Source: a virus. From it: a stretch of 41,352 nt of DNA. Location of the stretch: UHGV virus genome UHGV-0213024; one strand, given 5' to 3'. The translations under genes were made by a program, and so were the position numbers. This document shows, piece by piece, positions 342 through 41,253 of the stretch. The notes beneath the pieces were generated by a model that searched no databases, was not told where the DNA came from, and worked only from the letters and a program-made list of their open reading frames with translations. The number at the start of each line of letters is the position of its first letter. Positions within the stretch are counted from its first letter, which is position 1.

Positions 342-724
342 GATTCATCATCCTTCCTTAAAAAATCTCCGTTTAACGGAACAAATGGTTCTGGCTCCGG
401 CAACCAAGCAATCACATCTAAAAGCCATTCATCGTCAGTTGACCACCACTCCTTTCTGTTGACATCGTAATAACCAACATCAACATTTCCATGCCTCACC
501 GTAACATGTACTACTCCACCATCTTCCGGAACCCGCTCCGTCACTGGTATCCAGCCGGTCAGCAATTTTCCATCCGTGATCTCCTCCGGCGACAGGCCGG
601 TATCCTCATAGGCTTTAAGCCGCCAGTATATCGTCATGGCCTGCTCTTTTACCGCCCTAATATCAATAACCGCCCGTCTTAATCCGCCCTCTATTGGCTC
701 GTCAGGTATTGTTAATCTTTCCAT
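332..724 (-). CDS. DUF551-like phage protein
   Basis: MERLT N-terminus, RLKAYEDTGLSPEEI, WIPVTERVPE ... VIAWLPEPEP; AGGAGG RBS. Confidence 0.75.
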   Translation of the reverse strand: MERLTIPDEPIEGGLRRAVIDIRAVKEQAMTIYWRLKAYEDTGLSPEEITDGKLLTGWIPVTERVPEDGGVVHVTVRHGNVDVGYYDVNRKEWWSTDDEWLLDVIAWLPEPEPFVPLNGDFLRKDDESWE

Positions 725-743
725 TGCTTTTCCTCCTTAAATT

Positions 744-974
744 TCAGTTTTGCGGAACAAATGCTTCTGCCAATGTTGCTTTGCTAATCTCTATCCAACC
801 AAAATCATCCGAACCGCTAACGCATTCTAGGTGGATTTCTCCGCCGCATATACTTGAGGTTTTATTTTCCACCCAGATACTTCCCTGCTTCACATATCCG
901 TATTTATTCGGTATTTCAAATCCGTCTCCATCGCATTGCGGTATCCATAATTCTTTTATACACTTATATTCCAC
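744..974 (-). CDS. Hypothetical protein
   Basis: GTG start with AGAAAGAAGG RBS; stop codon lies inside a junction motif. Confidence 0.65.
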   Translation of the reverse strand: MEYKCIKELWIPQCDGDGFEIPNKYGYVKQGSIWVENKTSSICGGEIHLECVSGSDDFGWIEISKATLAEAFVPQN

Positions 975-1388: not shown

Positions 1389-1427
1389 ATCTTCTCCCTT
1401 CCTCCGGTTCTTCCGGAAATCCTAATT

Positions 1428-1817
1428 TTACAGATGAAGAGATTTTAAAATTTGTTGCCGTTCCTCTTCCGCCTGTTCTAAATCTATGTCGAAAAATTCT
1501 GCCAGTAACTTTTCTGGATTTATATGGTCGCCAGCTCCAACATATCCAAATTGTTCTCTCGGTAAAGATGGGTCAAATAAGGCATACTTACTACGAATAA
1601 AATCCAAAAAATCACCGCAAATACGCGAAGCCGGTTCAACCGCTTTTATTTTTTCCAACATAGGATACTGTTCTTTTTCTGATTCTTCCTGCTCAAATCT
1701 ATCCGGTTTATAATCTTCCGCTTCCTGTCCTACATACTGTCTCTTACAATCCAAGCACAGCGTATTTATAAATCCTTCTTTTGCTCTATTCTTACAAACA
1801 TCACAATCCCACATCAT
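1428..1817 (-). CDS. Hypothetical protein with CxxC...CxxC N-terminus
   Basis: ORF with GGAAAGGAAG RBS, flanked by the 12-bp direct repeat AAATTAGGATTT. Confidence 0.7.
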   Translation of the reverse strand: MMWDCDVCKNRAKEGFINTLCLDCKRQYVGQEAEDYKPDRFEQEESEKEQYPMLEKIKAVEPASRICGDFLDFIRSKYALFDPSLPREQFGYVGAGDHINPEKLLAEFFDIDLEQAEEERQQILKSLHL

Positions 1818-1837
1818 TGCACTTCCTTTCCTAAATC

Positions 1838-2734
1838 CTAATTTAGCAAAATTTTTTTTGCAGTTTCTACGTCTCTCTGATCTATATCATGGGGCAAATT
1901 ATCATAATAATCTCCATAATAAAGTTCATTCTCATAAGCTCGAAAAGAATTCTGTTTCCACAGTTCTTCATTTGCTGTGTCCAACTCTTCATACCTTTTT
2001 TGTACTCCATAGATATACCAATCCATAACATCGTACTTTGTTTTCCAACGGTCAAAGTTCCGGCCTTCCAACATTTTTTCAAACGCCCACAGATATGCCT
2101 TTTCAAAATTAGGCCATCTTCTAAATTCTCTAATAATTTTTTTATAGTATGTAAGCGGACATCCCACACACCCAATACGGTCAAATCCTTCATCGTATAA
2201 ACAAGGGTATGGTATATGATTATCGTCTATCACTCTCCATAGTTGTTCATCTGTCCAGTCAATAATTGGATGATAAAATTCTACCCCTTTATCCAACTGG
2301 CAAGTTTCCCACTTTCCACGATTTCTACGCTTGACACTCTCCGCTTTGCGAACTCCTGTCAATGTCAAAACGTCTCCGCCTTTGGGACATGTATTACGTT
2401 CTTTAAATTCTTGACAACAATACCTGCAAACTCTCGTGGGCGGGAATCCTTTCTGTATAATCATTTTAAACATCGATGTTCTTGGCTTTTCTTCAATTAC
2501 ATCTTTATGGTATTTGTGTATAAAATCAAGAAGCTCTGGTGGATCTACACTTGTTCGGCTAAATCTTGTCTGATATGGAACTCCAGACTGTTCAAATAGC
2601 CATTTTAAAACAACGCTATCTTTTCCTCCCGAAAAACGTACACACATGGTTTTATTTTTTGATATGGCACGTATCTCTTTGATTGCTTTTCCGACATAAT
2701 CACCATATACAGGTAAATCCATTTGTCCTCTCAT
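1838..2734 (-). CDS. PAPS reductase-family (PP-loop) protein
   Basis: FSGGKDS PP-loop, CRYCC..FKE, LTGVRKAES..R, PIIDWT, RIGCVGCP. Confidence 0.9.
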   Translation of the reverse strand: MRGQMDLPVYGDYVGKAIKEIRAISKNKTMCVRFSGGKDSVVLKWLFEQSGVPYQTRFSRTSVDPPELLDFIHKYHKDVIEEKPRTSMFKMIIQKGFPPTRVCRYCCQEFKERNTCPKGGDVLTLTGVRKAESVKRRNRGKWETCQLDKGVEFYHPIIDWTDEQLWRVIDDNHIPYPCLYDEGFDRIGCVGCPLTYYKKIIREFRRWPNFEKAYLWAFEKMLEGRNFDRWKTKYDVMDWYIYGVQKRYEELDTANEELWKQNSFRAYENELYYGDYYDNLPHDIDQRDVETAKKILLN

Positions 2735-2802
2735 TATCCCTAAAAGGTTCCGTGTACACTCTCCCGGCCGGGGAACGGCTCCTTTCTTGTTTAAATATTG
2801 GT

Positions 2803-3435
2803 TTACAGCATCACTTTTTCTTCAAAAGTCAGCGCTTTTTTCTGCAAGTTTTCAAGTAGTTTTGGTATATTCAGCCTCTTAATTGTATCAGCCGCAAGCT
2901 GGTCTTTGAGATTTTGCTCGAGCGTTTTAAGTACCATTTCTTCTGCTTCTCCTTTTGCAGTTTGGATCATTTCGCTAACCTGTCCCGCTAAGCTCTTCTG
3001 CAAATATTTATCTATAAAGTATTCATTGATTGACACCTGCTTATCACCGTTGTAAGAAGCCACATTTCCGTTTTTATCAAATACTTTTTTATTCAGATAA
3101 TTCTGATATCTCTCTCCTACGTACTCGCTCATGGGCATATATTTAACTTCATCGCTCCACGAGTTCGTCTTATATGGGATCTGCATTTTAGCAATGCTCT
3201 CTTCGCATATGCGACCAAGAAAATCATCGATCTTTTTGTCTATAGATTCTTTCGCTTGTTCGATCTTTTCTAAAATTACTTCGTCTACCGCTTTTACTGC
3301 CTCTTCGGTAGCCCTTTTTAGTAGCTGTTCCTTTACGCCTCTTACTACCTGATCTCTGATTTCATCATCAATAGATATACCTTCTTCGCAGTTATCTATC
3401 CAATCAAGCTCAACCTCAATATTAAATTTTGCCAT
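2803..3435 (-). CDS. Hypothetical phage protein
   Basis: 210-aa ORF with AAGGAGG RBS. Confidence 0.75.
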   Translation of the reverse strand: MAKFNIEVELDWIDNCEEGISIDDEIRDQVVRGVKEQLLKRATEEAVKAVDEVILEKIEQAKESIDKKIDDFLGRICEESIAKMQIPYKTNSWSDEVKYMPMSEYVGERYQNYLNKKVFDKNGNVASYNGDKQVSINEYFIDKYLQKSLAGQVSEMIQTAKGEAEEMVLKTLEQNLKDQLAADTIKRLNIPKLLENLQKKALTFEEKVML

Positions 3436-3499
3436 TGATTTATCCTCCTTCTTAAAATTATTGCTTTCCCCGCCCGCTGGGTACAGGCGGGGAACACAA

Positions 3500-6529: not shown

Positions 6530-6626
6530 CTGCTCTCCTTTCCCCCGCCGGCAGGTAATTACCGACGGGATGAACAATGGCATACAATAGTTACGTTCGT
6601 GATATATAATCCTCTTTGGGGAGGTG

Positions 6627-6929
6627 TCATAAGTAAGATTTCCGGAACTCCTTCCGGAATTGTTCTCGGCTGCCTATATGATCCTCATAGTATGTCTGGG
6701 CCATCCGTTTAAACCGCAGGTCCAATTCCCGGTTTTGGTGGACTCCGTAGGATGATAGGTTATGCCAGTCTGGCCGGAGTGGTACAAGAAAACCGTATCT
6801 CTCCGATGCTTTTCTGTCCGAGCCGCCAAATACGTGATGTATGGCCACCGTGTTGCTGCCGGTTATGTAGCAGTGATCCAGATCATCGGTCAGGACGCTA
6901 TACAGCTTTTTTCTTGTCACATTTAACAT
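6627..6929 (-). CDS. HNH-like/Ref-like small nuclease
   Basis: CYITG..AIHHVFGG..RK.SE.YG..VPL..WH...GVH pattern. Confidence 0.6.
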   Translation of the reverse strand: MLNVTRKKLYSVLTDDLDHCYITGSNTVAIHHVFGGSDRKASERYGFLVPLRPDWHNLSSYGVHQNRELDLRFKRMAQTYYEDHIGSREQFRKEFRKSYL

Positions 6930-7482: not shown

Positions 7483-7483
7483 A

Positions 7484-8594: not shown

Positions 8595-8737
8595 GATGCT
8601 TCCTCCTCTAAATTGATTTCATACTCCACTCGGTCGAATTCCGCAGCTTCCCTGCGCCGGCGACGTCTCATTCTCTCCTGTTCGGCTTCGTGCTGCTCAT
8701 ATAGATCCGCTGCATCCGGTATATATCCCATGATCAT
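8591..8737 (-). CDS. Small hypothetical protein (48 aa)
   Basis: Manual translation MIMGYIPDAADLYEQHEAEQER...; ATGA overlaps with both neighbours. Confidence 0.6.
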   Translation of the reverse strand: MIMGYIPDAADLYEQHEAEQERMRRRRRREAAEFDRVEYEINLEEEAS

Positions 8738-8913
8738 TCCCCCCTCATTACCAGAAGAGGTTTTTCAAAGCAGGTTGATTTTTTGATTTCATACACTTCC
8801 CCGACCTTATCATGGTATCCAACATCTGTCGGATCATATCCGGTATCTATAAATACTACATCTGCGTCTTGATCACAGCTCAATAATACCTTCATCATGT
8901 CTCTTACTTTCAC
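8734..8913 (-). CDS. Small hypothetical protein (59 aa)
   Basis: GGAGG RBS plus GTG; MKVRDMMKVLLSCDQDADVVF... Confidence 0.6.
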   Translation of the reverse strand: MKVRDMMKVLLSCDQDADVVFIDTGYDPTDVGYHDKVGEVYEIKKSTCFEKPLLVMRGE

Positions 8914-9013
8914 TTGACTAATCCTCCGATTCTGCCTTATAATTAAGGCGTAATAAGTAATTACTCTACTAATTGATCCCGGCGGAGCCCACCTCCTAAG
9001 GGATCGTTTTTTT
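8914..9013 (+). ncRNA. Putative antisense sRNA unit (promoter plus terminator) against the early operon
   Basis: TTGACT-18-TATAAT (8914-8943), then GATCCC...GGGATC hairpin and T7 (8975-9013). Confidence 0.5.
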
Positions 9014-9169
9014 GCAGCGCTCCTGCGGTATCCGCACGCGCCATCCGGTTTTTGATCGGATTATGTATACCGGAGTACCGATCGCTATGTTGTCTATCCC
9101 GATCACTAGGCCGGTATTGGTACAACCGTCGCTCCCGGTCCAGGTCACGTTGTCCCCTATCTCAATCAT
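8996..9169 (-). CDS. Small hypothetical protein (57 aa)
   Basis: Manual translation MIEIGDNVTWTGSDG...; fills a gap in the operon. Confidence 0.5.
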   Translation of the reverse strand: MIEIGDNVTWTGSDGCTNTGLVIGIDNIAIGTPVYIIRSKTGWRVRIPQERCKKTIP

Positions 9170-9172
9170 CTG

Positions 9173-9307
9173 TCATCGCCCCCAAATCCATCGGTCGCAG
9201 GGTGACTGGTTATTCCTGATGATTCCGGCCTCTCGGCTCAACAGGATATGATATCGACCTGCATGGATGTGTAAGGTTCCATTATTTCGGCTATATCTTA
9301 TTTTCAT
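9173..9307 (-). CDS. Small hypothetical protein (44 aa)
   Basis: AGGAGG RBS before MKIRYSRNNG. Confidence 0.5.
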   Translation of the reverse strand: MKIRYSRNNGTLHIHAGRYHILLSREAGIIRNNQSPCDRWIWGR

Positions 9308-9318
9308 GGCATTTCCTC

Positions 9319-9714
9319 CTATCCTTTCGCCCCGGTTATCACCCGGACGTATACTGTTTTTCGGCCCCACTCAACCGCATCCCTATGCTCGTCCATGTAC
9401 AGATCTATGATCCGACCTTTGATCAGCCGACCGGTGTCCTGGGCCTCATATATGCCCATCCACTCTCCGTCCTCGCCCCATATCATCACCGCACTACCCA
9501 GCGGGATCACGTCGGGATCTACTGCTACTGTGACACCCTCGCGGGGCCATTTGCCGCTTGAAGTAGGATTTCCCGTTTCGCAGTAGGCTGTGCTCTCGAA
9601 CGCCTCCGTATACGGCGGCTGCGGGTCTTGCCCGGCCTGTGCCCGGATTGCTGCGGCCATAATGACAATCATGACAATGGCGATTATGATTCCCCAGCGG
9701 GTACCTTTATCCAT
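9319..9714 (-). CDS. 3D (Asp-Asp-Asp) domain protein with signal peptide/TM
   Basis: STAYC, TVAVDPDVIPLGS, AQDTG, IIDLY; hydrophobic N-terminus. Confidence 0.85.
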   Translation of the reverse strand: MDKGTRWGIIIAIVMIVIMAAAIRAQAGQDPQPPYTEAFESTAYCETGNPTSSGKWPREGVTVAVDPDVIPLGSAVMIWGEDGEWMGIYEAQDTGRLIKGRIIDLYMDEHRDAVEWGRKTVYVRVITGAKG

Positions 9715-10055
9715 TACCACCACTCCTCGCCTTTGTAATTCCACCAGCCCGTACCCGCATACTTAATGCGCAAAATGCCGTCACTATCCCGCTTAATGCC
9801 TTTGATGTCAGACAATGCCCGATCAATATTTTCCTGATGGAGTTCAATCGTTTCCAGCTCTTCCGGGGTTATACTGACACCATGGATAATGATGTCGTTA
9901 TCGCTGGTCCTGGCATCCGGCTTATTGACAGCCGCCAGCCCGGCCAGAGCGCTGATCATTTCTGGCAGATTATTAATAGATTTACTGCTTTGATTTTCCA
10001 GTTCTGTCTGTATCCAGTTACATATCGCTTCGATGGTTTCATCTACTTTTTTCAT
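9714..10055 (-). CDS. Hypothetical protein
   Basis: Co-oriented ORF overlapping the next start. Confidence 0.65.
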   Translation of the reverse strand: MKKVDETIEAICNWIQTELENQSSKSINNLPEMISALAGLAAVNKPDARTSDNDIIIHGVSITPEELETIELHQENIDRALSDIKGIKRDSDGILRIKYAGTGWWNYKGEEWW

Positions 10056-10092
10056 GTTCTCTTTCTCCTCTCAATTTTTCGCATGATCCGGA

Positions 10093-10320
10093 TCATCCGG
10101 CGGATCTCTCGTTTTGACACTCTGCTTCCCCCTCCTGGCACATATCGCCGTACCCGTAGTATTTTTCTTCAAAATATTTCCGGCTGACTTTTGCGGCTAC
10201 AGTGACATAGCCTTTTTCCTTCAACTGGTCATTCAGCTCCCGGATGATCGCAAGGGCTTTGCTGTCTGATACATCCAGGGCTTCCATGATCTCTTTCTTT
10301 TCAATGTAGTACTTGCTCAT
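10093..10320 (-). CDS. Excisionase-like HTH protein
   Basis: EIMEALDVSDSKA..IIRELN..L...GY.T...V...YF pattern; position after the antirepressor. Confidence 0.7.
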   Translation of the reverse strand: MSKYYIEKKEIMEALDVSDSKALAIIRELNDQLKEKGYVTVAAKVSRKYFEEKYYGYGDMCQEGEAECQNERSAG

Positions 10321-11409: not shown

Positions 11410-11423
11410 TTCGCACCTCCTTT

Positions 11424-11513
11424 GTTGATTTACATTCACTATAGCACCGCCGTGAATAATTGTCAACTGTTTTTAACAAAATTGTTGATTTTTTTTCACT
11501 TCTATGATATTAT
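11424..11513. promoter_or_regulatory. Lysis/lysogeny switch: divergent promoters and operators
   Basis: Minus TTGACA-17-TATAGT (11466-11438); plus TTGATT-17-TATTAT (11485-11513); operators GTTGA-N6-TTCAC at 11424-11439, 11452-11467 (inverted), 11484-11499; similar site at 11189-11204. Confidence 0.75.
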
Positions 11514-11538
11514 CACTTTATCGGAAGGTGGTGTCTGC

Positions 11539-12200
11539 ATGCTTGAATTATATAAAAATATTAAACGGTTGCGAGAAGAAAAAGGAATGTCACAAGATGC
11601 GCTAGCTAAACTCACGGGATATACTGATCGTTCCTCTATTACCAAGATAGAAAAGGGCCAAGTTGATTTGCAGCAATCAAAAATAGAATTGTTCGCAAAA
11701 GCACTAGGTACTACTCCAGGTGATTTAATGGGATGGACGGAAGAAACCTATTCTATACCCCATAAATCATATACGGACAGTATTTACACTTATGATAATC
11801 TCTACCCTATCGAATTGAAGAAATTCCCTCTTTTAGGTGAGATAGCATGTGGAGAACCTATCTTTGCTAGTGAGGACAGGGAGTCATACATATAGCTGGA
11901 ACAAACATCAAGGCTGACTTCTGCTTAAAGGCTAAGGGTGATAGCATGATTAACGCTCGAATCTTTGATGGCGATATTGTTTTTATTAGAGAACAGCCTT
12001 CCGTCAATGATGGAGAAATCGCCGCTGTCATTATAGAAGATGAGGCAACGTTAAAGAGAACATATTTTAATCGAGAAAATAATACATTGCAGCTTGTAGC
12101 GGAAAATCCCGCCTACAGACCACTAATATACACAGGAGAATCGTTAAATACAATTCGCATTCTTGGTAAGGCTGTAGCGTTCCAGAGTGATGTTAGATGA
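11539..12200 (+). pseudogene. CI-like repressor (XRE HTH plus S24 peptidase), split by a 1-nt frameshift near 11892
   Basis: HTH and LLGEIACGEP cleavage loop end at TAG 11893-11895; the -1 frame continues IAGTNIKADFCLKAKGDSMINARI...ATLKR...GKAV to 12200. Confidence 0.85.
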
Positions 12201-15027: not shown

Positions 15028-15158
15028 TTGACATTTTCGCATAATTTGCATATACTATAAATGCAGATAGAAATATGCTGTATACCTGTGTAACCGAATT
15101 AACGTTTAAGCGACATGTAATGTCGCCGGCCGCAGGGACCGCCGAAAGGCGGTTTTTT
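15028..15158 (+). ncRNA. Putative structured small RNA D
   Basis: TTGACA-17-TATACT (15028-15056); GAAA-capped hairpin 15061-15083; stem 15085-15136 with GCGACAT/ATGTCGC; terminator ACCGCC-GAAA-GGCGGT plus T-run. Confidence 0.7.
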
Positions 15159-15345
15159 GTTATCAAGGAGAAGTCAAAGCTTTGGGGTGCGAACCGGAGG
15201 ATCTGATATGAAATGCGTAATATATGGATGATGACTGAAAATGTAACGAAAAGGACGTATAAAAGAATCATAGAATGCTGTTTTAATCTTTAGCAACAAT
15301 AAATCATAAAAATATGTACTTTTTTTGAATTTTTATGTGTATAGA

Positions 15346-17021: not shown

Positions 17022-17963
17022 TTACAGTAGGCTGTTAATCGTCTTTGGCCCGCACAGTCCGTCAACAACAAGCCCAGCCCGCGCCTGCTGATCTTTCACG
17101 GCGGCTTCGGTCGCAGGGCCGAATTTCCCGTCGTCGTCCAGGCCGGCGGCCATGATCTCGTTGATCCTCTTCTGGACCCAATCGACCGTAACCCCGTCGC
17201 TTCCGCGCTTAAGCACCACTTTCCCGATTGCCTCCCGGGTCCGTGGCCCCATCTTCCCGTCTACCACCAGAGGTTTCCCGGCAGCGTCCCGGTATCCATC
17301 CAGGTTCAAGGCGTTCTGCAGCGCTTCCACTTCTGCCCTTCCAGATGACGGGATGGGCGCCGGATCAGAATCAGTATCGAACAGTTCTGGCTTGTAGCAG
17401 ATATTCATGTCGACCCTACCCGCGATCCCGTCCACCAACCCATTACTGGTATGCTGCCAGATCACGGCTGCCTCCGGGCGAAGGCTGGGAACTGCGGTCC
17501 CGTCATTCTTTCCATACCTGGCGATCCAGTACATATACGGCAGGTTAGCCACGTCCAGGACGTTGTTGTACCAATCCTGATTGCAATAGATCCCGACCTC
17601 GTACCCGGCCGCCCGAATCACTTCGACCGCAGCATTGATGATCTCGGTCAGGCGGGATTTCGGGAGATTCCGCTGTGCTGCCAACTCCATATCTAGCCAC
17701 ACGCGCTTGACCTGCCGACCTCGGATCAGATCCACTACCTTCCCGGCGCGGGCCCTCGCCGACTCTGGTGTCAGATCGTACATGTACACATACACGTCCG
17801 GGCGGTATCCTGCGGAAACGGAACCGGCGTAATACTCTTCGAAGCGTGCATCCGTTTTTCCACTTTGCAGGATACTACGCAGGATAACAAAATCGATATT
17901 GTCTTTTTTAACCGCGTTCCAGTCAATTCGACCCTGGTAGGAGCTTACATCTATTCCTCTCAT
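17022..17963 (-). CDS. Endolysin: GH25 muramidase plus peptidoglycan-binding domains
   Basis: GIDVSSYQG.IDW, WLDME, WQHTS.G...GI.G.VDMN; two DG.(M/F)GP.T PG-binding repeats. Confidence 0.93.
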   Translation of the reverse strand: MRGIDVSSYQGRIDWNAVKKDNIDFVILRSILQSGKTDARFEEYYAGSVSAGYRPDVYVYMYDLTPESARARAGKVVDLIRGRQVKRVWLDMELAAQRNLPKSRLTEIINAAVEVIRAAGYEVGIYCNQDWYNNVLDVANLPYMYWIARYGKNDGTAVPSLRPEAAVIWQHTSNGLVDGIAGRVDMNICYKPELFDTDSDPAPIPSSGRAEVEALQNALNLDGYRDAAGKPLVVDGKMGPRTREAIGKVVLKRGSDGVTVDWVQKRINEIMAAGLDDDGKFGPATEAAVKDQQARAGLVVDGLCGPKTINSLL

Positions 17964-18238
17964 TTCGTTCCCTCCCTCTCTATCAAGCGTCTAAAAGCCT
18001 GATGCAAACCTGTGCTCGCAAGCCCCGTCAGCGCCCCGTAAACGATATTTTCCAGCGTGATAGATGTATTTGCCACACACGCCAAGATCGCGCCCAGAAT
18101 CGCCAGGATCGCGGGGATATAGTCATTGCTGACCTTTGCCAGCCGGGGGATATGCTTAATACAGTACCCAACAATCAGACATGCAACCAAAACTATCGGT
18201 ATAAATAATTCGCTAATAAAATCTAAATTCATGTTCAT
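17960..18238 (-). CDS. Holin
   Basis: Hydrophobic, NDYIP.IL.ILG, GLASTGLHQAF; upstream of the lysin. Confidence 0.88.
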   Translation of the reverse strand: MNMNLDFISELFIPIVLVACLIVGYCIKHIPRLAKVSNDYIPAILAILGAILACVANTSITLENIVYGALTGLASTGLHQAFRRLIEREGTK

Positions 18239-18570
18239 CTCTCCTTTTCTTTCAGGCTGGTTGGCAGCTCTTTCAGCTCTTCCACCAGTTTTGTGATCGT
18301 TCCGTTGCCCCCCAGGGCATGGTACTGTTTATACATTTCTTCTACATTTTCCAAGGCATAGATCGGGCAATATCCCTTGTCCTCATGATAGTGGTTGTAG
18401 GCCTGGAGGATCCGGTCTCGGAGTAATGCCCGCAGACCGGCGCGGATGGCAATGGTTTTTGCATATACGTATCCCAGGGCCGGTACCATTGCCGCAAACA
18501 GCCAGCCCACCCAATTCTCTGCAATATATTTCGCTATCTGGTCAATATCAATCAAGTCCTTTCTCTGCAA
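18235..18570 (-). CDS. Lysis-cassette membrane protein (start uncertain)
   Basis: TM segment plus ALLRDRI...Y..YHALGGNG family motif. Confidence 0.75.
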   Translation of the reverse strand: MQRKDLIDIDQIAKYIAENWVGWLFAAMVPALGYVYAKTIAIRAGLRALLRDRILQAYNHYHEDKGYCPIYALENVEEMYKQYHALGGNGTITKLVEELKELPTSLKEKER

Positions 18571-18574
18571 TTTA

Positions 18575-18598
18575 AAACCGGCCCCCGCAGGGACCGGC
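18575..18598 (-). terminator. Terminator after the tail-fibre cassette
   Basis: Minus strand GCCGGTCCC-TGC-GGGGGCCGGT followed by a short T-run. Confidence 0.55.
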
Positions 18599-18659
18599 TG
18601 AAACGGTATCTCAATTTTTGTCTATCACCTTCATGGCAGCATCACCACGCCTTCTTTAT

Positions 18660-18980
18660 TTAAATAATAATTTATATATCAATCTCACAGGCGGAGCCGG
18701 GGTCAAAACAGTTGACAGTTTCAACAGTAAGCCCATATACACAAAGGTACTCGGATATGCTCGTGGATCTATCACAGATACCACGGATGCAACTATCCCG
18801 CATGGCGTATCAGGATATAGTCAGATCTGGATCGATCAGCAAAACAGTTTTATGCATAAAAGTACATTGTCCGCGCCATTGGACGGGGCGTATATCAATG
18901 GGAATAATTTGATTATCTCTTTTGCCGGGAACCGCAATGGGTATAACTGTTATGTTACTTTGCGGTATACACTTGCATAA
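18660..18980 (+). other. Silent alternative tail-fibre C-terminal module (106 aa, LNNNLYINLTGG...VTLRYTLA)
   Basis: Open frame begins at a 15-bp site identical, in inverted orientation, to the site in the expressed fibre gene; no RBS; convergent stop 7 nt from the fibre stop. Confidence 0.75.
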
Positions 18981-19560
18981 TTGATCATCACGCGGTTGTA
19001 TGCCACATTGCCGATATCATGACGTTGAGACCGGATATGAGGTTGGGACCGATGATAGTCACATTACCATCGGAGACGCTGAAGTAAGCCCTTGTGACGG
19101 TCGGCAATGCGCCCAGGCCGGTGACCATGATATCCAAATCTTTTGTGGGCCGGTAAGCGGCGGGGATATTCAGCGCCTGGCGGTTGGCCGTGCTTGTGGT
19201 TGTCTCCATAGATGCAAATACGCACAGTGATACTGTGCTGCCGCTTTTGGTTAAGGTAGAACGCGAGATGGTCAATGGTGAGTCCCCGCGATTGATAGTA
19301 CCGGTATATGTTGATACAGATCCGGTATCAACCCAGTCTTGCCATGTTCCGCCGGTATAAAGTCTGCGATATATATTAGATTTATTCATGACCGGCCAGG
19401 CGATGAGCAGCGACTCCGTAGGTGATAAGGTGATATGCTCCACATAAAACCATGCTGAGTAAGGCATACCAGCTACATTTCCGCCGCAATAGTACCGTCC
19501 CGGCGCCAGGTCTGTTACACTACCAGAGTTTACAGCCCTACCAACTAAATTATTATTTAA
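18660..19560. mobile_element. Invertible tail-fibre segment (two-state shufflon)
   Basis: Perfect inverted 15-mers TTAAATAATAATTTA at 18660-18674 and 19546-19560, both read in frame as LNNNL. Confidence 0.8.
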
Positions 19561-19734
19561 CGTCGTAATATCATCCGTATTGCTGTCCGCTTTTGCTTTC
19601 ACCTCATTGATCGCGGCAACCAAATTTGTCTTTGCCGTGGTTGTCAGGCTGGAAATAGTACCTACTGCTGTTTTAATCGGTTTTACTCCGTTCGTCCAGA
19701 ATCGATTTAGCAAATTGGCTGTTATAACCTTCAT
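18988..19734 (-). CDS. Tail fibre / receptor-binding protein
   Basis: LTTTAKTNLVAAINEV stalk; knob-like GRYYC..G.P...RLYTGGTWQDW; head-like IPAAYRP domain. Confidence 0.8.
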   Translation of the reverse strand: MKVITANLLNRFWTNGVKPIKTAVGTISSLTTTAKTNLVAAINEVKAKADSNTDDITTLNNNLVGRAVNSGSVTDLAPGRYYCGGNVAGMPYSAWFYVEHITLSPTESLLIAWPVMNKSNIYRRLYTGGTWQDWVDTGSVSTYTGTINRGDSPLTISRSTLTKSGSTVSLCVFASMETTTSTANRQALNIPAAYRPTKDLDIMVTGLGALPTVTRAYFSVSDGNVTIIGPNLISGLNVMISAMWHTTA

Positions 19735-19748
19735 TTATCATCACTCCC

Positions 19749-20180
19749 TTATACAAATAATCCATTGATAATATTATCAATGTCCGCCGTAGTCGCTTCT
19801 GTAATATCAGCCTTAAGCGCATAGCTACTTAGATCGATATTTACAGCCTTACTTGTTACAGGTAGAGCCGTATTATTTACTTTTACAACCTCAATAACAT
19901 TTGCCTGTCCGCCTGCAGGTACCGCCCACGTACCATCACCACGTAAAAAGCTGGCCTGCTTTCCTGCCGCCGGTGCCGGCACAAGTCCGTGGGATCCAGC
20001 TGCTGATGCGGTTGCCCCTTTCATATCCGTAATGCCTGCCAGCTTCGTCTTTTCGGCCGCCGTATAATCGTTACTGGACAATCCCTTTCCCGACTCTTTT
20101 GCTACAAACTTTTCAGTAATTTTTGTTACCAACCCAGCCGCAAATGCGGTCAGGTTTTCAAGTGTTACATATTTAGCCAT
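19749..20180 (-). CDS. Minor tail/fibre-associated protein
   Basis: GKGLSSNDYTAAEKTKLAGI, GLVPAP.AG...FLRGDGTW repeats typical of fibres. Confidence 0.75.
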   Translation of the reverse strand: MAKYVTLENLTAFAAGLVTKITEKFVAKESGKGLSSNDYTAAEKTKLAGITDMKGATASAAGSHGLVPAPAAGKQASFLRGDGTWAVPAGGQANVIEVVKVNNTALPVTSKAVNIDLSSYALKADITEATTADIDNIINGLFV

Positions 20181-20193
20181 CTACTCTTCCTCC

Positions 20194-21156
20194 TTAAAAT
20201 AGACTATTTATAAGTTGCTCTATTTCCTGATCGGTAATGGACACATCATCAAATATACCGCCATCATCTCCGGTATCTACGTAATCTCCGGATATCATAT
20301 TGTCAATATCCTCATTGGTTGCCGTGTTAAAGACTGCCGTTGTATCGTCAGTATCGATATAGGCGCTGGCTATGATATTGTCAATATCCTCAATGCCCGC
20401 CACCGCATACAGGCGGACGATCATATCATTCAGTTCCGCCAGCTGCTTCCCGTCGATCCCGCCGGTATCAATAATTTCCTGAATGCTTTCGAACCAGAGC
20501 ACAAGATCATCTGCTGTCTGGTTAACTTCCCTGATCGCGGTGTCGGTATCAACTTCCCTTTGGATCTCGGCTGTCACACGCTGACTTTCTGCCGCCTGCC
20601 TGTCGTTTTCGGCTTTCACGCGTGCTATTTCGGCATTCCTCCTGGCTGTTTCCGCTACCTTTCTTGCTTCTTCTGCAGTATTCCTGATGGCTTCCGCGGC
20701 CTCTCTTCCAGCCTCGGTCTGCTCGATCTTTGGTATATTTTCCTGCGCCCATAGAATAAATTCATTTAATATCGAAAATTCATTTGTACTCTCGATATCG
20801 CTGTCTGGAACCACGCACTCCTGGATCTGCATTTTAAAGCTTATGGTCGACAGGATATCCTGATCTTTTCTAAGTTCAATCTCCACAACGGCAATTCCGG
20901 CTATTGCTAATGCCTGGCTCGTTAATGGGATCAAAACTTCTTCGTCCTGTAGTTCACAAAAGCTAAATACAGATGTACCATCCGGTTTTCGTATTTTAAC
21001 CCGCAATTCCGCGTCCTGTGGTATGTCAAATAGCGAACCTTCTTCAGTAATTCTTGCAGCTATATATCTGCTTCCAGAATCATTCTGTTTCGCTGTGACC
21101 ATAATGGACGGCACTTCTCTGTATAAATCAATTACCACATGCTTAATTATCTGCAT
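20194..21156 (-). CDS. BppU-like baseplate upper protein
   Basis: AKQNDSGSR.I...RKPDG N-domain, IESTNEFS.L, then coiled coil; start inferred. Confidence 0.82.
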   Translation of the reverse strand: MQIIKHVVIDLYREVPSIMVTAKQNDSGSRYIAARITEEGSLFDIPQDAELRVKIRKPDGTSVFSFCELQDEEVLIPLTSQALAIAGIAVVEIELRKDQDILSTISFKMQIQECVVPDSDIESTNEFSILNEFILWAQENIPKIEQTEAGREAAEAIRNTAEEARKVAETARRNAEIARVKAENDRQAAESQRVTAEIQREVDTDTAIREVNQTADDLVLWFESIQEIIDTGGIDGKQLAELNDMIVRLYAVAGIEDIDNIIASAYIDTDDTTAVFNTATNEDIDNMISGDYVDTGDDGGIFDDVSITDQEIEQLINSLF

Positions 21157-21358
21157 CCGCACCACCCTTTTCCAGGGCCTCATGATATGCCCGCCTTGCC
21201 GCTTCTGCCTGTTGCGCAGTAAGCGCCTGTACCTCCATGTATAGATCCCTGATCAGCGGTTCTAGGATCATCCACGGAAGCCTAGCCTCATTGATTGCAG
21301 TTTTGATCTTCTCCCGCAACTCATCCATGATAATCACGGTTGGTTTTTCCGGTTTCAT
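21143..21358 (-). CDS. Small tail-region protein
   Basis: Overlapping ORF, IN...LP..ILEP. Confidence 0.65.
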   Translation of the reverse strand: MKPEKPTVIIMDELREKIKTAINEARLPWMILEPLIRDLYMEVQALTAQQAEAARRAYHEALEKGGADADN

Positions 21359-23552
21359 TAAGCATCATCCTTTCCACTTTTTCATTCAGTTCTTTGACCG
21401 CGCCCCAGAGGACACCGACCGCAGTATACATGTTAATAGCATCCCCCTTTCTGGATAAGACTTTTGGTGTAAGCCGGTACCCATCACCGATTACAAAACC
21501 TTGTAGCTCGTATCCGGGTGAGTCGCGGAACTCAAACTTATAGATATCTGTATCCATTACTTCATCCAAAAGGTTGATTGCTGGCCTGATATTCTGCTTG
21601 ATCGAGGCCAGCGATTTCGTGTCAACACCGTCAGGGCTTAACCGGCTCCCGGATCCCCCATTGCTGATCTCAATCGCTTCTGACGTCAGTAACGATCTGG
21701 TTCCGCCCGGAGGCCCTACCCCATCCGGAGAAAGCGCTTGCGCCCCTCGATCGTTCGATACCGACACGAATTTAGGCGTCATCAACGCTTTTTCTGATCC
21801 ATTTTCCATTCCCACCCCGGCAGTACCTATCTTTGCGATCCATCCGGAACCATCCACCTTTTTGATATGCATGCCCTGACCGAACATTTGGGTTACATAT
21901 TGTTGATTATGATTCAATACTTGGCAAGTAACGTTTTCCTCTTCCCCACCGTTAATTGTTGCCTGGGAGGAAAACAATCTTCCATCGTGTGACACACGAA
22001 ACGTTGCCGTCTCTCCGGTTATATCAGTTCCGCCAGCCCAGAATGCCATTCCGTGACCATTCGAGTTCATGCCGGCTCCTTCGTTTCGCAACCGGTACTG
22101 CTCTATTGTCCACCCCGCTATGTTGCCGTGTATGGCGGTCAATCCTGTGCTATCCAGGCGGACATATTCGGTGCTACCATCCCCGGATTTAACTCGGATC
22201 ACTCCATCCGCGTCATTTTGAGATCCCGCTATGATCTCATTTCCCTGGATCTTGATTCCAGACAATGTTCCAACAGTGATATAATCGGCTACAATCGCGC
22301 CGTTCATCGTAATCGCCAGATCATAAGGGCCATCCATTCCGTCTTTGCTGTATCCCAATCCCGCCAGATTCCAGCGCCAGCATTTCCCAGCCTTGGCCTT
22401 ATCCGGCTTATCCATGATCAAGATCTGCTCCGGTCTTTTCGGCGGATCCAAAACTACATACCCTCCACGCTGACCGGTGATCAGCTGTGTAGCAACATCA
22501 ATCGCCACCTCCAGCGTTGTCTTGGTCTGCTCCGCCTGATCCGTTATCTCATTCCGTATCTGGTTTATGGTCCCTTGCACCCTGGGCGGCGTAGTGGATA
22601 GTGTAACCACGTCAAGTGAGTGATTATCCGGATACTCCCTGTACTCGATCACCTGGTGATTTACCCGGATATTCCGCTTTCGGTCGATCAGTGTGACCAT
22701 TTTATACAGCCATACGTCCTCGTCAAGATTGATCACATCGCATTCGTATGATCTGACCGGGAAGGCTAGCTTTTTCAATTTTTCGGTTGCTGCCGCCAGC
22801 AAGCTTTCTGGTTTTGTATAGCGTTCATCCTTCCACCCGATCGATATTACCCGATCCGAGTAGCTGTGATCCTCTACATATTCCTTCCCTCCGTTTACGG
22901 ACGCGATCGATAACGGGATATCCGTCTCTTCGTCCGGTTTCCCGTAGGCGTACAGGCGGGTGGCGAAATCCGTGCTATTCCCGGTATACCCTAGGCTCCG
23001 CAGGTTCAGTTCGTCGGTGATATATTCACCGCCTGGCGTATAGCTCCCCGGGTCAACCACGTACATAATCCGCTTAACCGAATCGTATGTAGCCGTCAAC
23101 CCGTATAGCTCCAGGATCCGCAGCATTAGATCTTCCGAGTTTGCATTCTCGATCGGCCTTCCTTCGCTGGCCTCAATCGTTTTTTTAGCCGGGTACTTCC
23201 CGGCGTCAGCGATAGACCAGTTTACCGGTTTGATAATATTTAGCGCATCACTGATCGTTATCTCTGTCCGCCGGAAATCTGTCCAGAACCTTTCCCGCCA
23301 GTCGTCCAAATCGATCTGGCAGTCAACCGTTACAATCCGGGATCTCTCATCAATATTCTTTACGATATACCGATTTTGCCCATCAAAAATCCGGACCTCT
23401 TCGGCTATGTACTTATATGCCTCGTGAGAGTCCGGAATTTCAAATGACAATATATCATATCCGTTATATTTATGGGTGACGCTCCATTTATCCGGCTCAA
23501 GTTCGAGCGGATATAGGATTTTCGGTGCATTATAATCCTGTATTTTTAGCAT
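21321..23552 (-). CDS. Tail spike/Tal-like minor tail protein with C-terminal S74-like chaperone
   Basis: TRLYAYGK, W.DERYT, WRWNLAGLGYS..G..GPY..AIT.NG.IVAD.I; C-terminal S...IKQNI...LWGAVKEL. Confidence 0.85.
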   Translation of the reverse strand: MLKIQDYNAPKILYPLELEPDKWSVTHKYNGYDILSFEIPDSHEAYKYIAEEVRIFDGQNRYIVKNIDERSRIVTVDCQIDLDDWRERFWTDFRRTEITISDALNIIKPVNWSIADAGKYPAKKTIEASEGRPIENANSEDLMLRILELYGLTATYDSVKRIMYVVDPGSYTPGGEYITDELNLRSLGYTGNSTDFATRLYAYGKPDEETDIPLSIASVNGGKEYVEDHSYSDRVISIGWKDERYTKPESLLAAATEKLKKLAFPVRSYECDVINLDEDVWLYKMVTLIDRKRNIRVNHQVIEYREYPDNHSLDVVTLSTTPPRVQGTINQIRNEITDQAEQTKTTLEVAIDVATQLITGQRGGYVVLDPPKRPEQILIMDKPDKAKAGKCWRWNLAGLGYSKDGMDGPYDLAITMNGAIVADYITVGTLSGIKIQGNEIIAGSQNDADGVIRVKSGDGSTEYVRLDSTGLTAIHGNIAGWTIEQYRLRNEGAGMNSNGHGMAFWAGGTDITGETATFRVSHDGRLFSSQATINGGEEENVTCQVLNHNQQYVTQMFGQGMHIKKVDGSGWIAKIGTAGVGMENGSEKALMTPKFVSVSNDRGAQALSPDGVGPPGGTRSLLTSEAIEISNGGSGSRLSPDGVDTKSLASIKQNIRPAINLLDEVMDTDIYKFEFRDSPGYELQGFVIGDGYRLTPKVLSRKGDAINMYTAVGVLWGAVKELNEKVERMMLNETGKTNRDYHG

Positions 23553-23562
23553 TCCTTCACCT

Positions 23563-24291
23563 TCATTCAAACAGCGGGTAGAACTCAACCGTCACCGGCA
23601 TGTTATTGGACATGGTTATTTCGTTCTTTCCTGGCTGGATTTTGGGAAAATTGATCAAGTCCGTGTCAGCGAAACGGTTGTTCCCGTCCTCCATAACACG
23701 TCCCTCTATCCCATCGATCATGAAGTCTTTTCCTGCGTGTATGCCTATTACCTGGATACCGCAGATTTTTTGTGCAAGAAGATCCTCCGCGGGGTGAAGT
23801 ATATACCTTACACCAGATGGGACGTTCCCGTCATTGAAGATCACTCCTGGGCCAGTTATGTTGATCGATACCAGCGGAAGTCGTTGGATAGCAACAAATG
23901 TAAGCCGTACAATATAGTATGGCTCAACGCCAGACTCCTGTACCGTGCTTCCGGTCAAAATTGCTGGATACTCAAAGCGGTGGAGTTCCCGGCGGATAAT
24001 ACATTGCTTCGCTGCCAGCAGCAGATTGGAAATATTTTCATTTGCCTGTTCATCGGAGGCCCCGCCTACGATAAATTCTGCCGTAAGCATTTTGGGCTGT
24101 ACCGTACTGCCGTAGTCTATAAATCCGCAGCGGCCAGCCTGGAGGATGTATTGCGGAGTTATTGCTCCCGGAGTAAGTTGGAGAGATTTCAGGTCGGCGT
24201 TATAGTCAGTATAGGCGTCCAAATTATTAATTTGGCATTTTTCACCTACTCTTTTGTCATAAGCAAAATAACTTTTAGTATAGTCCCACAT
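23563..24291 (-). CDS. Distal tail protein (Dit)
   Basis: Position after the TMP; FPKIQPGKNEI C-terminus. Confidence 0.8.
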   Translation of the reverse strand: MWDYTKSYFAYDKRVGEKCQINNLDAYTDYNADLKSLQLTPGAITPQYILQAGRCGFIDYGSTVQPKMLTAEFIVGGASDEQANENISNLLLAAKQCIIRRELHRFEYPAILTGSTVQESGVEPYYIVRLTFVAIQRLPLVSINITGPGVIFNDGNVPSGVRYILHPAEDLLAQKICGIQVIGIHAGKDFMIDGIEGRVMEDGNNRFADTDLINFPKIQPGKNEITMSNNMPVTVEFYPLFE

Positions 24292-24320
24292 TAAAACGCC
24301 TCCGTTCTTATTATGCATAA

Positions 24321-24353
24321 TAAAACCCCGTACATATACTGCACGAGGTTTTT
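24321..24353 (-). terminator. Terminator after the lipoprotein moron
   Basis: AAAACCTCGTGC...GTACGGGGTTTT hairpin. Confidence 0.6.
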
Positions 24354-24365
24354 ATAAGTATTTAA

Positions 24366-24887
24366 TTAAAGTTTTTTCTTTAATTTATACAGAGGTGATT
24401 CAGGCATGGCCTCGTATTTACCGGACATAACAATAACTTGCTCTTCATCTCCTGTTAGACCCATTGTACTTATATAACAGGATGTTGAGTAATCATCATT
24501 CCCATCTATAAATCCCCAATATGGTCCGTCATTTTTCCCGCCGGATAAATTTTCAGAAATAGGATCTCCATATTTCTTTTTTAGAGACTCAATTATTCCC
24601 GCTTGTGCATCCTCTGTATAACTAATGTTGTATCTCACTTTGCATAACGAATCATTTACAAAATTATACGATACTGTTACCCCATCCACGCCAAGAGAAA
24701 TCTTATTACTTTGCACCCAAAAATCTTGATCATCACTCAACTCTCCCGCGATATCTTCTACCTGCTCCTTTGTCATTCCAAACTTGATCTCATCACTGTG
24801 TGGAACCAGTTCAACATCTGGTTTTCCGCATCCAACTAGAGATATTAGTAGAGCAGACAGTATAAAAAATGATAATAATCTTTTCAT
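24366..24887 (-). CDS. Lipoprotein moron
   Basis: MKRLL..hydrophobic..LVG-C lipobox; own promoter TTGACT-16-TATAAT (24937-24910) and AGGAGG RBS. Confidence 0.85.
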   Translation of the reverse strand: MKRLLSFFILSALLISLVGCGKPDVELVPHSDEIKFGMTKEQVEDIAGELSDDQDFWVQSNKISLGVDGVTVSYNFVNDSLCKVRYNISYTEDAQAGIIESLKKKYGDPISENLSGGKNDGPYWGFIDGNDDYSTSCYISTMGLTGDEEQVIVMSGKYEAMPESPLYKLKKKL

Positions 24888-24933
24888 TAATCCTCCTCCT
24901 TTTGTTACCATTATACTATTATAATTGTATAAG

Positions 24934-37131: not shown

Positions 37132-38327
37132 CTCTCTCCGTACATCTGATCACTGTATATTCCATATCTCATTGCATCCATTATGTCATCATTCTCCTTC
37201 ACCGGTTGCTCTTTCCCTTCGTCCCAGGCGTAAGTATCTATTTCTTCGTCGAATCCTTCTACATCTTTTTCGACGACAAAAAGGCGACGTGTTTTAAATA
37301 ACGTCGCTACGGCGGCTATGCCAGCTACAACATCTTTACGGGCATTAATTGCCCGAAGTCCGGCCACTTGCATGTCATAAATCAGATCTGGCCTGGCAGA
37401 ATCGCAATAAAAATTGATGTCTCCAAACTGCGAGGTCAGGCCAAGGCCAATTTCAATCCATTTTTCTATCGGCCGGTGTTTTTTCTTCCATCCGCGCAGC
37501 AGATAGATATTTCCGTCCATTCCCTCTCCAAGCAAGCATAATGCGCCTGGATGTTCCCATCCAAAGTCTTTGCCCGCCCAGTGCCGAACGATCGGCGGAA
37601 CCTGATCAGCTCGGATGTAATGCACATTCCGTTCAAAATCCGGATACACTATGCCAGCAGCCGCTACCCATGCCCCATTGATATCTCGGTCATAAAACAT
37701 ACCGGTTGGAGTTGTGGCTTTTGTATTTTCGATATATCGCTCATCAACAAAAGTATTGTCCGTTAATTTCCATTGAAATTGCGCGATTGATTTACCGTCC
37801 GCCTTGTCTATATAGTCCTTTTTTAACCAGTGCGAGGGGCAATCGGGGTTTGTATCCATCAATATTCTAGCCCCTGTACCAGAACACCTTTTTGATATCT
37901 CATTAAATACTTCTCGGTTGGCCATCGTGGCCTCGTTGATGTATGCACCATAAGATGTCATCCCCCGGATCCGATTAAGATCATTAATCTTGCTATGTCC
38001 GAAGCAGCACACTTGCACGCCAAAAAGGACGAAACGATTGTATTTATCGAACTGGAATGATAAGCCATATTTATTTTCCAGTTCGTTTAGCACGTTTCTC
38101 TGGACCGCTCCCTGATCAGATCCGGCCAAAATATATTGAGGTTTAGTGATTCTATATTTATCTGCAATTTCCCTGGTGCGTATCAACTCGTTTAAAAACA
38201 GATCATTATCTAACACAGTTTTTCCTGATCTTTTCGCGCCGTGGTTAATCAGCATAAAAAAATCGTTATTCAAAGCGAATCGAAGAACTTCTTGCTGCTT
38301 CGGGCTGTACAAATCATTCAGGCTCAT
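37128..38327 (-). CDS. terL: Terminase large subunit (PBSX family)
   Basis: GAKRSGKT, YINEA, DTNPD.P.HW, DFGW, DSARP, KENDD.MDAMRY. Confidence 0.95.
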   Translation of the reverse strand: MSLNDLYSPKQQEVLRFALNNDFFMLINHGAKRSGKTVLDNDLFLNELIRTREIADKYRITKPQYILAGSDQGAVQRNVLNELENKYGLSFQFDKYNRFVLFGVQVCCFGHSKINDLNRIRGMTSYGAYINEATMANREVFNEISKRCSGTGARILMDTNPDCPSHWLKKDYIDKADGKSIAQFQWKLTDNTFVDERYIENTKATTPTGMFYDRDINGAWVAAAGIVYPDFERNVHYIRADQVPPIVRHWAGKDFGWEHPGALCLLGEGMDGNIYLLRGWKKKHRPIEKWIEIGLGLTSQFGDINFYCDSARPDLIYDMQVAGLRAINARKDVVAGIAAVATLFKTRRLFVVEKDVEGFDEEIDTYAWDEGKEQPVKENDDIMDAMRYGIYSDQMYGER

Positions 38328-40015: not shown

Positions 40016-41053
40016 TTATGCCGCCCGGCGCCGTACACTTCGCAGCGTGTCCGCCGTAGACTCGGCATAGTATTTTGATGTCGTTGACGGGCTTTGATGG
40101 CCCAGTACCTCCTGGATCATACCGATATCTACACCCTTGTTTTTGAGATCCATACCCAGAGTCTTTCGCAGTTTGTGTGGGTACACCCTGCACTGGACTC
40201 CGGCCCTCTCCGCAATCTCCTTGAGCTTGATACGGATCGTAGCCGATGACAACGGATTGTGTGGCCGCTTGTACGACGCCAACAGCGCCGGCGATTGATC
40301 GGTACGTGTATCCAGGTATTTTTTGAGATGATACCGGGCTGGCTCATCCAAGTAGATTGTCCGATATCCTCCCCGTTTCTCTCCTAAAATCATGATGTCT
40401 CCGGTCATCCAGTCAATATCATATCGGTCGATCTGCGCCAGCTCCCCGACACGGACACCGGTACTCCGCAGCACCTCAATAATCGCCCGGTCCCGCAGAT
40501 CCCCGCATCCCTCCCGCAACTGCTCAAGCTCGGAGTCACGGAAATAGTCGATCGGCTTCCGCGGTGCCTTTTTGGGCTGCGTGCTGTCTACCGGATTGTC
40601 GTGGATCAGTTTCTCTTTCCGCATCCAGCTGAAAAAGGCGGAAAGGAACCGACGCTCGTTGTTTACTGTTGTGGCCTGTATCCGGTGTCCGGTAGCCTCC
40701 TGGTTTCGCGTCTCATACCACCGCAGGTAATACGATATATCAATGTCCTCTATCTCTGTCAGGGGCTTGTCAATCAGAGTCAGCAGACGCTTGATGGCGC
40801 CCAGGTACATTTCTTTTGTGCCTTCGGCCAGCTCTTTCTTTTTAAACAGAAACAGGTTGATAATATACTTGTTCTGCTCATCCGTGCTCCGGTGGACTTC
40901 CGCCGGCAGCGTAGTGATCTCCTCCATGTTCACCCTGACAAACTGTGCCTCAATCACCTGCTCAAGTATCCGCAGAGATCCCTGGCCGATATGTGCTGCC
41001 ATTGCCATCAATATTTCCTGCTCGATATTCGTCTTAATCTGCTGGTTCATCAT
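40016..41053 (-). CDS. Second tyrosine recombinase (XerD-like, no arm domain)
   Basis: Intact catalytic set STGVRVGE, K, YPHKLRKT, LGH, Y; AAGGAGG RBS before ATG at 41053. Confidence 0.93.
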   Translation of the reverse strand: MMNQQIKTNIEQEILMAMAAHIGQGSLRILEQVIEAQFVRVNMEEITTLPAEVHRSTDEQNKYIINLFLFKKKELAEGTKEMYLGAIKRLLTLIDKPLTEIEDIDISYYLRWYETRNQEATGHRIQATTVNNERRFLSAFFSWMRKEKLIHDNPVDSTQPKKAPRKPIDYFRDSELEQLREGCGDLRDRAIIEVLRSTGVRVGELAQIDRYDIDWMTGDIMILGEKRGGYRTIYLDEPARYHLKKYLDTRTDQSPALLASYKRPHNPLSSATIRIKLKEIAERAGVQCRVYPHKLRKTLGMDLKNKGVDIGMIQEVLGHQSPSTTSKYYAESTADTLRSVRRRAA

Positions 41054-41071
41054 GATTTTTCCTCCTTCGTA

Positions 41072-41162
41072 TTGCCTAAGACATACCAAGGTGGTATAAT
41101 GATCTTAGGTTTGAGATTGTGGTAGAAATTCACTTTGGCCGGTGTTCTACCACTATTTTTTT
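41072..41162 (+). ncRNA. Putative antisense sRNA unit in the leader of the second recombinase
   Basis: TTGCCT-17-TATAAT with TG (41072-41100); GTGGTAGAA/TTCTACCAC hairpin plus T7. Confidence 0.5.
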
Positions 41163-41253
41163 GATTATGTAGCCGAACATATTTTCGTAACATACGTTCG
41201 ATTTGAAGTTCTTTTTTTGGGTCCCGGCGCAAAGGCTGGAACCCTGGTAATAA

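Follow-up and report, generated by a model that had tools for sequence, protein, structure and literature searches.

A remote XerA-like tyrosine recombinase as the probable invertase of a tail-fibre switch in a temperate gut phage, and related dyads at its early-gene junctions

The recombinase encoded in the early region of this phage is probably the remote invertase of a tail-fibre switch located 20 kb away. This reading is favoured because the enzyme is kin to shufflon recombinases and its family co-occurs with fibre switches that have no invertase beside them. That the enzyme family also acts on short dyads at early-gene junctions, and then mostly in trans, is about evenly balanced on the sequence comparisons described here, and the joint reading (a remote fibre invertase together with junction dyads served by the family largely in trans) likewise stands at even probability.

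Open-reading-frame calls and family scans identify the window (the whole stretch of DNA analysed, 41,352 nt) as the genome of a temperate tailed phage, with replication and early genes, an immunity region, an integrase gene, and genes for lysis, tail, head and terminase; it also has Erf-like, NinB-like and RusA-like genes. A 79-codon open frame crosses the 41352/1 join, so the phage genome is taken to be circular, which places the recombinase just downstream of the early array. This frame is similar to LexA DNA-binding-domain genes and matches genes in eight of 119 related loci; two of these homologues contain PF01726 and one homologue lies 451 bases upstream of the recombinase of the closest relative. 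Named relatives come mostly from Lachnospiraceae genomes (Diplocloster modestus, 72%), and phage phiCs5676-1 of Clostridium scindens provides another (57.6%). On this basis we infer Lachnospiraceae as the host family, and the host is likely to be a gut bacterium. A DUF3800-I RNA motif (Rfam RF02969, 102 bits) is located at 15056–15164, beside the putative attP, and the repressor is apparently split (11422–12200), its HTH and peptidase domains being encoded by separate ORFs. The coordinates of the features are summarized in Table 1.

Table 1. Positions of the recombinase, crossover sites, junction dyads and neighbouring features in the window.
Feature	Position	Strand	Basis or remark
Arm-less XerA-like tyrosine recombinase, 345 aa, PF13495 + PF00589	40016..41053	-	Family scans
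Hairpin overlapping divergent sigma70-like promoter, with two SOS-box-like sites	41054..41205	-	Kept in relatives
Divergent sigma70-like promoter	41072-41100	+	Motif likeness
Active crossover site TTAAATAATAATTTA within fibre ORF, read L-N-N-N-L	19546..19560	-	Perfect inverted repeat
Silent crossover site, perfect inverted copy of active site	18660..18674	+	Perfect inverted repeat
Predicted tail-fibre ORF, 248 aa: 58-aa constant N-terminus + current tip	18988..19734	-	Weak PHROG tail-fibre matches, E 3e-5
Silent alternative tip, in frame once inverted	18660..18980	+	Inversion in silico
Junction dyad AAA CGGAGA TTT	363..374	-	Before ribosome-binding site, in last codons of ORF 332-724
Junction dyad AAA CTGAAA TTT	739..750	-	
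Junction dyad AAA TTAGGA TTT	1417..1428	-	
129-aa cassette ORF	1428..1817	-	Between two identical direct dyads
Junction dyad AAA TTAGGA TTT	1833..1844	-	Holds TAG stop of PAPS-reductase-like ORF 1838-2734
Junction dyad AAA CCAATA TTT	2793..2804	-	
Imperfect dyad AAG CAATAA TTT	3455..3466	-	Upstream edge of array
Arm-type integrase, PF14657	13765..14826	+	Family scan; outside recombinase/dyad system
Putative attP beside integrase	Repeats near 14815 and 15005		

The catalytic residues of the recombinase (R201, K226, H293, R296, H319 and Y328) are invariant across 26 homologues, and with the R-K-H-R-H/W-Y set and the integrase fold the protein is predicted to be an active tyrosine recombinase. 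The N-terminus contains an extra helical region of about 40 residues. The family scan found no arm-binding domain; the integrase at 13765 does have one (PF14657). The best-scoring model is the XerA-like NF040815 (176.5 bits, below the cut-off of 220), which gives 215.7–257.6 bits for five sister-clade enzymes, three of them exceeding the cut-off. XerA is the best sequence match (∼27% identity) and the nearest solved fold. Identification as XerD (NCBIfam, 113.9 bits; cut-off 329.6), XerC (NCBIfam, 121.4 bits; cut-off 335.15) or IntI (TIGR02249, 58.9 bits; cut-off 265) was rejected. The original prediction described an intact, arm-less, XerD-like enzyme next to the array and about 20 kb from the fibre, and the only recombinase not accounted for by attP. 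The residues and the missing arm domain agree with an intact, arm-less enzyme, the likeness is to XerA instead of XerD, and the 20 kb distance is correct, with adjacency to the array holding only across the window join. No further recombinase besides this enzyme and the integrase was found among the window ORFs scanned.

The fibre locus has the geometry of a tail shufflon, with inverted crossover sites, one of them inside the fibre gene, and an in-frame alternative C-terminus. The tail dyads (TAAAT-AATA-ATTTA at 18661–18674 and the reverse complement at 19546–19559) form part of a perfect inverted repeat of 15 bp, and inversion in silico places a second open tip, with another C-terminus, behind the first 58 codons of the fibre gene. 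Exact TAAAT-N4-ATTTA sequences occur three times in the window (1832, 18661 and 19546) compared with 0.13 ± 0.36 in shuffles. Both tail copies of the motif named in the original prediction were thus located, and its identity with the dyad of the junction site at 1832 holds; the 3454 site, said to share the AATA core, does share it, but its dyad is not perfect, one arm being mismatched. The 15 bp pair is not among the 25 longest repeats returned by the repeat finder, and the family scan found no recombinase among the ORFs surrounding the fibre (17022–24911). The silent tip recurs letter for letter in other contigs from position 18662, one of which has different upstream letters. No inversion or excision joints at the sites were seen in contigs covering only shares of 0.05–0.17 of the window, which bears neither way.

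Thirty-five phage or prophage stretches with an early-region enzyme were assembled, a recognisable lysis gene being present in 25; leaving out the window, one duplicate and one stretch with an upstream lysis gene gave 22 phages. Of these 22, 17 have an AAAY site that is in frame and has an inverted partner (two of the pairs are weak and more than 2.5 kb apart), and clear pairs are present in three of ten enzyme-bearing stretches without a lysis anchor. The five phages failing the pair test are phiCs5676-1, three with opposite-strand ORFs after the fibre, and G350, which has an early enzyme and no switch layout at all. Two window genes (3500–4219 and 20194–21183) yielded no relatives as control anchors; the control set was therefore anchored on one holin family (50 of 80 loci taken, 48 searched, 22 at least 90% complete, 17 of these without the enzyme family and 13 of the 17 with a 5 kb flank). 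Inverted pairs were found in two of the 13 family-free controls, both weak, compared with 17 of 22 enzyme-bearing phages (Fisher p 5e-4), a comparison that rests on a single holin family and on related, non-independent samples. Neither a serine (resolvase-family) nor a tyrosine invertase was found beside these fibre switches.

A full family member is encoded in five of the 22 complete holin-anchored records. The reverse direction was checked in the three holin-anchored loci in which a pair without an adjacent invertase has at least 5 kb of flank: one has the close enzyme at a remote position (E 1e-181), one a broken remnant and one (67% complete) none. Between the relatives G315 and G317, opposite orientations of one tip are seen, the active tip of G315 being inverted in G317 from the dyad onward (289 nt, 94.8%). 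Other arrangements were also seen: G435 has kept the fibre switch with only a broken remnant of the recombinase, and G322 encodes an early-region family member and a second, distant one in the same record. A transposase gene lies in the silent tail-site region of phiCs5676-1 (L046 13690–14600), apparently splitting the site, and the fibre of this cultured phage may be fixed in a single state. Elsewhere in this locus (37203–38083), two near-identical small-gene copies with two cassettes between them and dyad-like junctions lie just downstream of the recombinase.

Relatives of the recombinase were found in at least 52 of 301 host-family genomes by a profile search in which seven candidates per genome were scored. 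Shufflons were surveyed around 20 more distant relatives on long contigs and others from viral records, and many of these enzymes proved to lie within one. Ten of 13 fibre-adjacent relatives examined lie among inverted sites starting AAAT (read by eye), five of these loci having a full or nearly full dyad and five a weaker right arm; in the other three (L402, L416 and L044) the enzyme has no inverted AAAT sites. Clear inverted dyad pairs accompany four of nine hsdS-adjacent relatives (also read by eye). L152, L157, L158 and L159 are type I restriction hsdS shufflons with the same dyad around a sister-clade recombinase, the dyads encoding INNNLEQ or VNHHLEQ. L168 is a phage tail locus. The phylogeny proposed as a check on the original prediction accords with kinship: in a tree of 75 rows, built by a quick method with long outgroups, the early-region clade (41 rows including the window enzyme; SH-aLRT 96) is sister to the fibre/hsdS-adjacent clade (29 rows; 96).

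In the early region (1–3500), AAAY-N4-ATTT occurs six times on the coding (-) strand, five times at gene junctions and once, at 2594, inside a gene; in the other 37.8 kb this strand contains it twice, as the tail pair. The dyads at 1417 and 1833 consist of the same 12 bases. The looser pattern AAAY-N4-RTTT is found eight times in the window compared with 5.6 ± 2.4 by chance, so the signal is carried by placement. No Rfam match was obtained in the early-gene array. The window cassette (1426–1828), in contigs of two runs, has a different neighbour and ends at a dyad whose core also differs. Directly following the 2793 dyad is a 47-base intergenic stretch (2742–2788) that is found again, between differing flanks, in many contigs; it may be a small leader or promoter element that is mobile.

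Junction dyads of this type are true homology breakpoints and exchange points. In 120 undereplicated loci with close relatives of the recombinase, a scan for the dyad with a ribosome-binding site gave densities of 17–41 per 100 kb over the 4 kb that lie upstream of the recombinase gene compared with 0–10 elsewhere, and 76 of the 120 loci have a dyad within these 4 kb. Conservation at 121 junctions is confined to 12–14 bases without extended arms. Homology blocks between loci start at the first base of the dyad and stop at the last; breakpoints fall at 61 of 137 covered dyads (297 in total) compared with 61 of 1141 control gene starts, and identity changes abruptly at both edges of the dyad in pairs of loci with a common downstream gene (42 pairs) or a common upstream gene (33 pairs). 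The breakpoint enrichment and edge steps, together with the occurrence of the window cassette (1428–1817) elsewhere, identify the dyads as the points of exchange. Parentage switches near dyad positions 3–5, which matches the 6 bp overlap expected for tyrosine recombinases, and exchange partners share as little as ∼6 bases, with differing cores.

Tail and junction sites differ in their centres. Among 16 tail sites 88% have A at position 4, and among 120 junctions 73% have T there, the cores being T-A-G/A and Y-T-R, respectively. The right arms of tail sites are often degenerate (ATTT in only 69/69/81%), and the junction arms had been selected as perfect. This core difference could keep the two classes apart. 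The original prediction had the core set partner choice; the cores do differ, but the effect is confounded, since, of 251 junctions examined, 180 have a long upstream frame, and in 59 of these the stop codon of the upstream gene occupies positions 4–6; coding constraint therefore explains part of the difference. Co-variation of tail and junction arms was not seen; a clade with altered tail arms is simply without junction dyads.

The distribution of junction dyads does not follow that of the enzyme. One narrow junction pattern occurs in ∼910 viral stretches (a scan estimate) compared with 164 matches for a close enzyme. Dyad-anchored records of at least 35 kb numbered 47 (from 80 listed out of 115), and 46 were searched: a full family member was found in three of the 46 and in two of the 34 complete ones, and 21 of the 46 had no tyrosine recombinase at all. 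The family is thus present in only three of 46 dyad-anchored compared with five of 22 holin-anchored records, which counts against a dedicated system acting in cis. Four junction dyads occur in prophage G200, whose whole genome encodes no family member. Conversely, the clade L012–L017/L070–L080 has an intact enzyme and tail sites, no junction dyads, and mosaicism at ribosome-binding sites and inside genes instead. The junction pattern is found in 12 of 15 complete enzyme-bearing and six of 17 enzyme-free records (some of the matches being tail sites; p 0.016). The dyad-anchored loci share no protein family (the largest cluster covers 11 of 115), and no alternative phage enzyme was thus found.

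On the chromosome, too, dyads come after accessory genes located downstream of rlmH (L247). There, toxin-antitoxin, GNAT, RibD-like, glyoxalase and MATE genes (3300–10100, genome G176) are accompanied by seven dyad-plus-ribosome-binding-site junctions, with no recombinase within 10 kb of the array; similar single junctions are seen in L240, L244, L246 and L249. Two close homologues of the array genes diverge right after AAAT. An exact dyad follows two of 27 homologues of the cassette genes (most being distant MATE genes) compared with eight of 316 background gene ends. Twenty matches to the dyad with a ribosome-binding site in host genomes are mostly single, with no family member within 10 kb, and many of the single ones are probably due to chance. 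An identical 21-mer comprising dyad and ribosome-binding site occurs in ten genomes (G032, G034, G036, G058, G059, G135, G158, G194, G235 and G245) and probably belongs to one widespread mobile element.

In the mechanism that we propose, one recombinase subunit would bind each AAA/TTT half, strands would be cut around the central 6 bp and exchange would occur in the first bases of the centre. The identical inverted TAATAA pair would flip 18675–19545, joining the constant fibre N-terminus to either tip, and direct sites with compatible centres (TTAGGA, 1417/1833) would allow single-gene cassettes to be excised, inserted or swapped between co-resident genomes. The single diversification system of the original prediction survives in part: kinship and co-occurrence support inversion and the junctions are exchange points, but the enzyme counts and the clade without junction dyads speak against a dedicated cis system. 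A strict version, in which this copy acts in cis on tail and junction sites alike and partner choice depends on the core alone, would suit the joint presence of both classes with a single unassigned recombinase in this genome, the differing tail and junction cores and the 12/15 versus 6/17 association; with junction dyads mostly separate from the enzyme, an enzyme-bearing clade without them and a core bias partly due to stop codons, it is improbable. Another alternative, unlikely but to be taken seriously, is that the enzyme is only a remote fibre invertase and that the junction dyads are recombined by a host XerD or XerS-like enzyme or by phage annealing proteins acting on the stop-codon/ribosome-binding-site linker. 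Most dyad-bearing records are without the family, nearly half of those searched being without any tyrosine recombinase; dyads border chromosomal genes too, and the hosts encode XerD and a conserved XerS-like recombinase of ∼350 aa; the phage has the Erf-like, NinB-like and RusA-like genes; and the stop-codon cores and the clade without junction dyads point the same way. Exchange on ∼6 shared bases with differing cores is nevertheless short for annealing proteins, the junction geometry and reading frame match the inversion sites of the family, and the dyads cluster beside the enzyme. The dyads also have no extended arms, whereas XerS is described in the accessible text as needing a 31-bp site, difSL (PMC1914069).

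The enzyme could instead shuffle cassettes or resolve phage dimers, with the fibre flipped in trans by a chromosomal relative or one from another prophage. Its position in the array and not at the fibre, the relatives in host-family genomes and a nearest solved fold that is the dimer resolvase XerA would fit; the strong cis co-occurrence with invertase-less switches, and the retention of enzyme and tail sites by phages that have no junction dyads, make this very improbable. The motif is short, the loose count is near chance and single chromosomal matches are often accidental, as would be expected if the shared motif had arisen by chance from AT-richness and the enzyme were a passenger; this is scarcely credible in view of the dyad placement and conservation across relatives, and is largely refuted by the breakpoint and co-occurrence data.

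Extended beyond phages, the comparison raises the tentative suggestion, at less than even probability, that one XerA-like family uses the 12-bp AAA-N6-TTT dyad throughout the Lachnospiraceae in fibre and hsdS switches, phage cassettes and chromosomal arrays, and that, because it acts in trans, most arrays can do without a recombinase gene. If so, the whole would resemble an integron cassette system that has neither IntI nor attC. In integrons (IntI/attC) and pdif modules, the units are single genes with a site between the stop codon and the next ribosome-binding site. The present arrays resemble integrons in the exchange of gene units at a site after the stop codon and in the SOS-box-like sites upstream of the recombinase; unlike integrons and pdif modules they have a 12-bp dyad, with no attC-type hairpin or 28-bp dif-like site apparent, the IntI model scores far below its cut-off, and the dyad arrays are mostly without a linked recombinase.

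The closest known system, by analogy of organisation, is the Rin shufflon of Bifidobacterium prophages, in which, according to the accessible text, the rin gene lies beside the locus and the crossover site rix (TTCCCTAACCC) is 11 bp long and asymmetric (PMC6109161). Both have a phage-encoded arm-less tyrosine recombinase, a constant N-terminus with swappable receptor-binding C-termini and short sites inside the gene. Unlike Rin as described there, the enzyme here lies 20 kb from the fibre locus, with no recombinase at 17022–24911, and unlike rix the site is an AAA-N6-TTT dyad of other sequence that also occurs at early-gene junctions. RecV of C. difficile, a clostridial tyrosine recombinase, and Mpi of B. 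fragilis are master invertases that act at a distance, one recombinase serving unlinked invertible sites as proposed here; they are chromosomal and flip regulatory switches, and the accessible text reports no direct-repeat cassette class (PMC5903667). Invertible loci without a nearby recombinase are acknowledged in the portion available of PMC9881135, as are type I R-M hsdS shufflons with a tyrosine invertase, which the hsdS-embedded sister-clade enzymes with the same inverted dyad resemble; hsdS enzymes lie inside their own shufflon, whereas the early-region enzyme is remote. The enzyme is a single arm-less recombinase like archaeal XerA and streptococcal XerS, but is phage-borne with many short sites in place of one long dif site (PMC1914069, accessible text). 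The available part of the phiCs5676-1 paper makes no mention of inversion or a recombinase (PMC8005731). No description of the dyad or the enzyme clade was found in the literature covered, outside which lie subscription journals and supplements such as the locus tables of PMC9881135.

A variant of the phage tyrosine shufflon, possibly with a wider cassette system behind it, would supply a candidate enzyme for the fibre switches without a neighbouring invertase that are common in these gut phages; scans made only beside the switch would miss an enzyme that is remote from it. Mosaicism of early genes, usually ascribed to homologous or illegitimate recombination, gains a base-exact crossover site, and this site is common to shufflons and chromosomal accessory genes. 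Were one family to act on all of these, gut Lachnospiraceae would harbour an undescribed cassette system whose recombinase uses a 12-bp site. The cultured relative phiCs5676-1 on Clostridium scindens makes the system open to direct testing.

The hairpin overlapping the divergent promoter-like site upstream of the recombinase is kept in most recombinase loci. An SOS-box-like site (consensus with one mismatch) is located within 300 bases upstream in 51 of 118 recombinase loci compared with 30 of 632 background windows, and twice in the upstream region of this phage; from these matches we infer that the recombinase may be under host SOS control. In G315:C56:104495 and G337:C1:18761, a serine-recombinase-family frame of 290–299 aa is located just downstream of the tyrosine recombinase.
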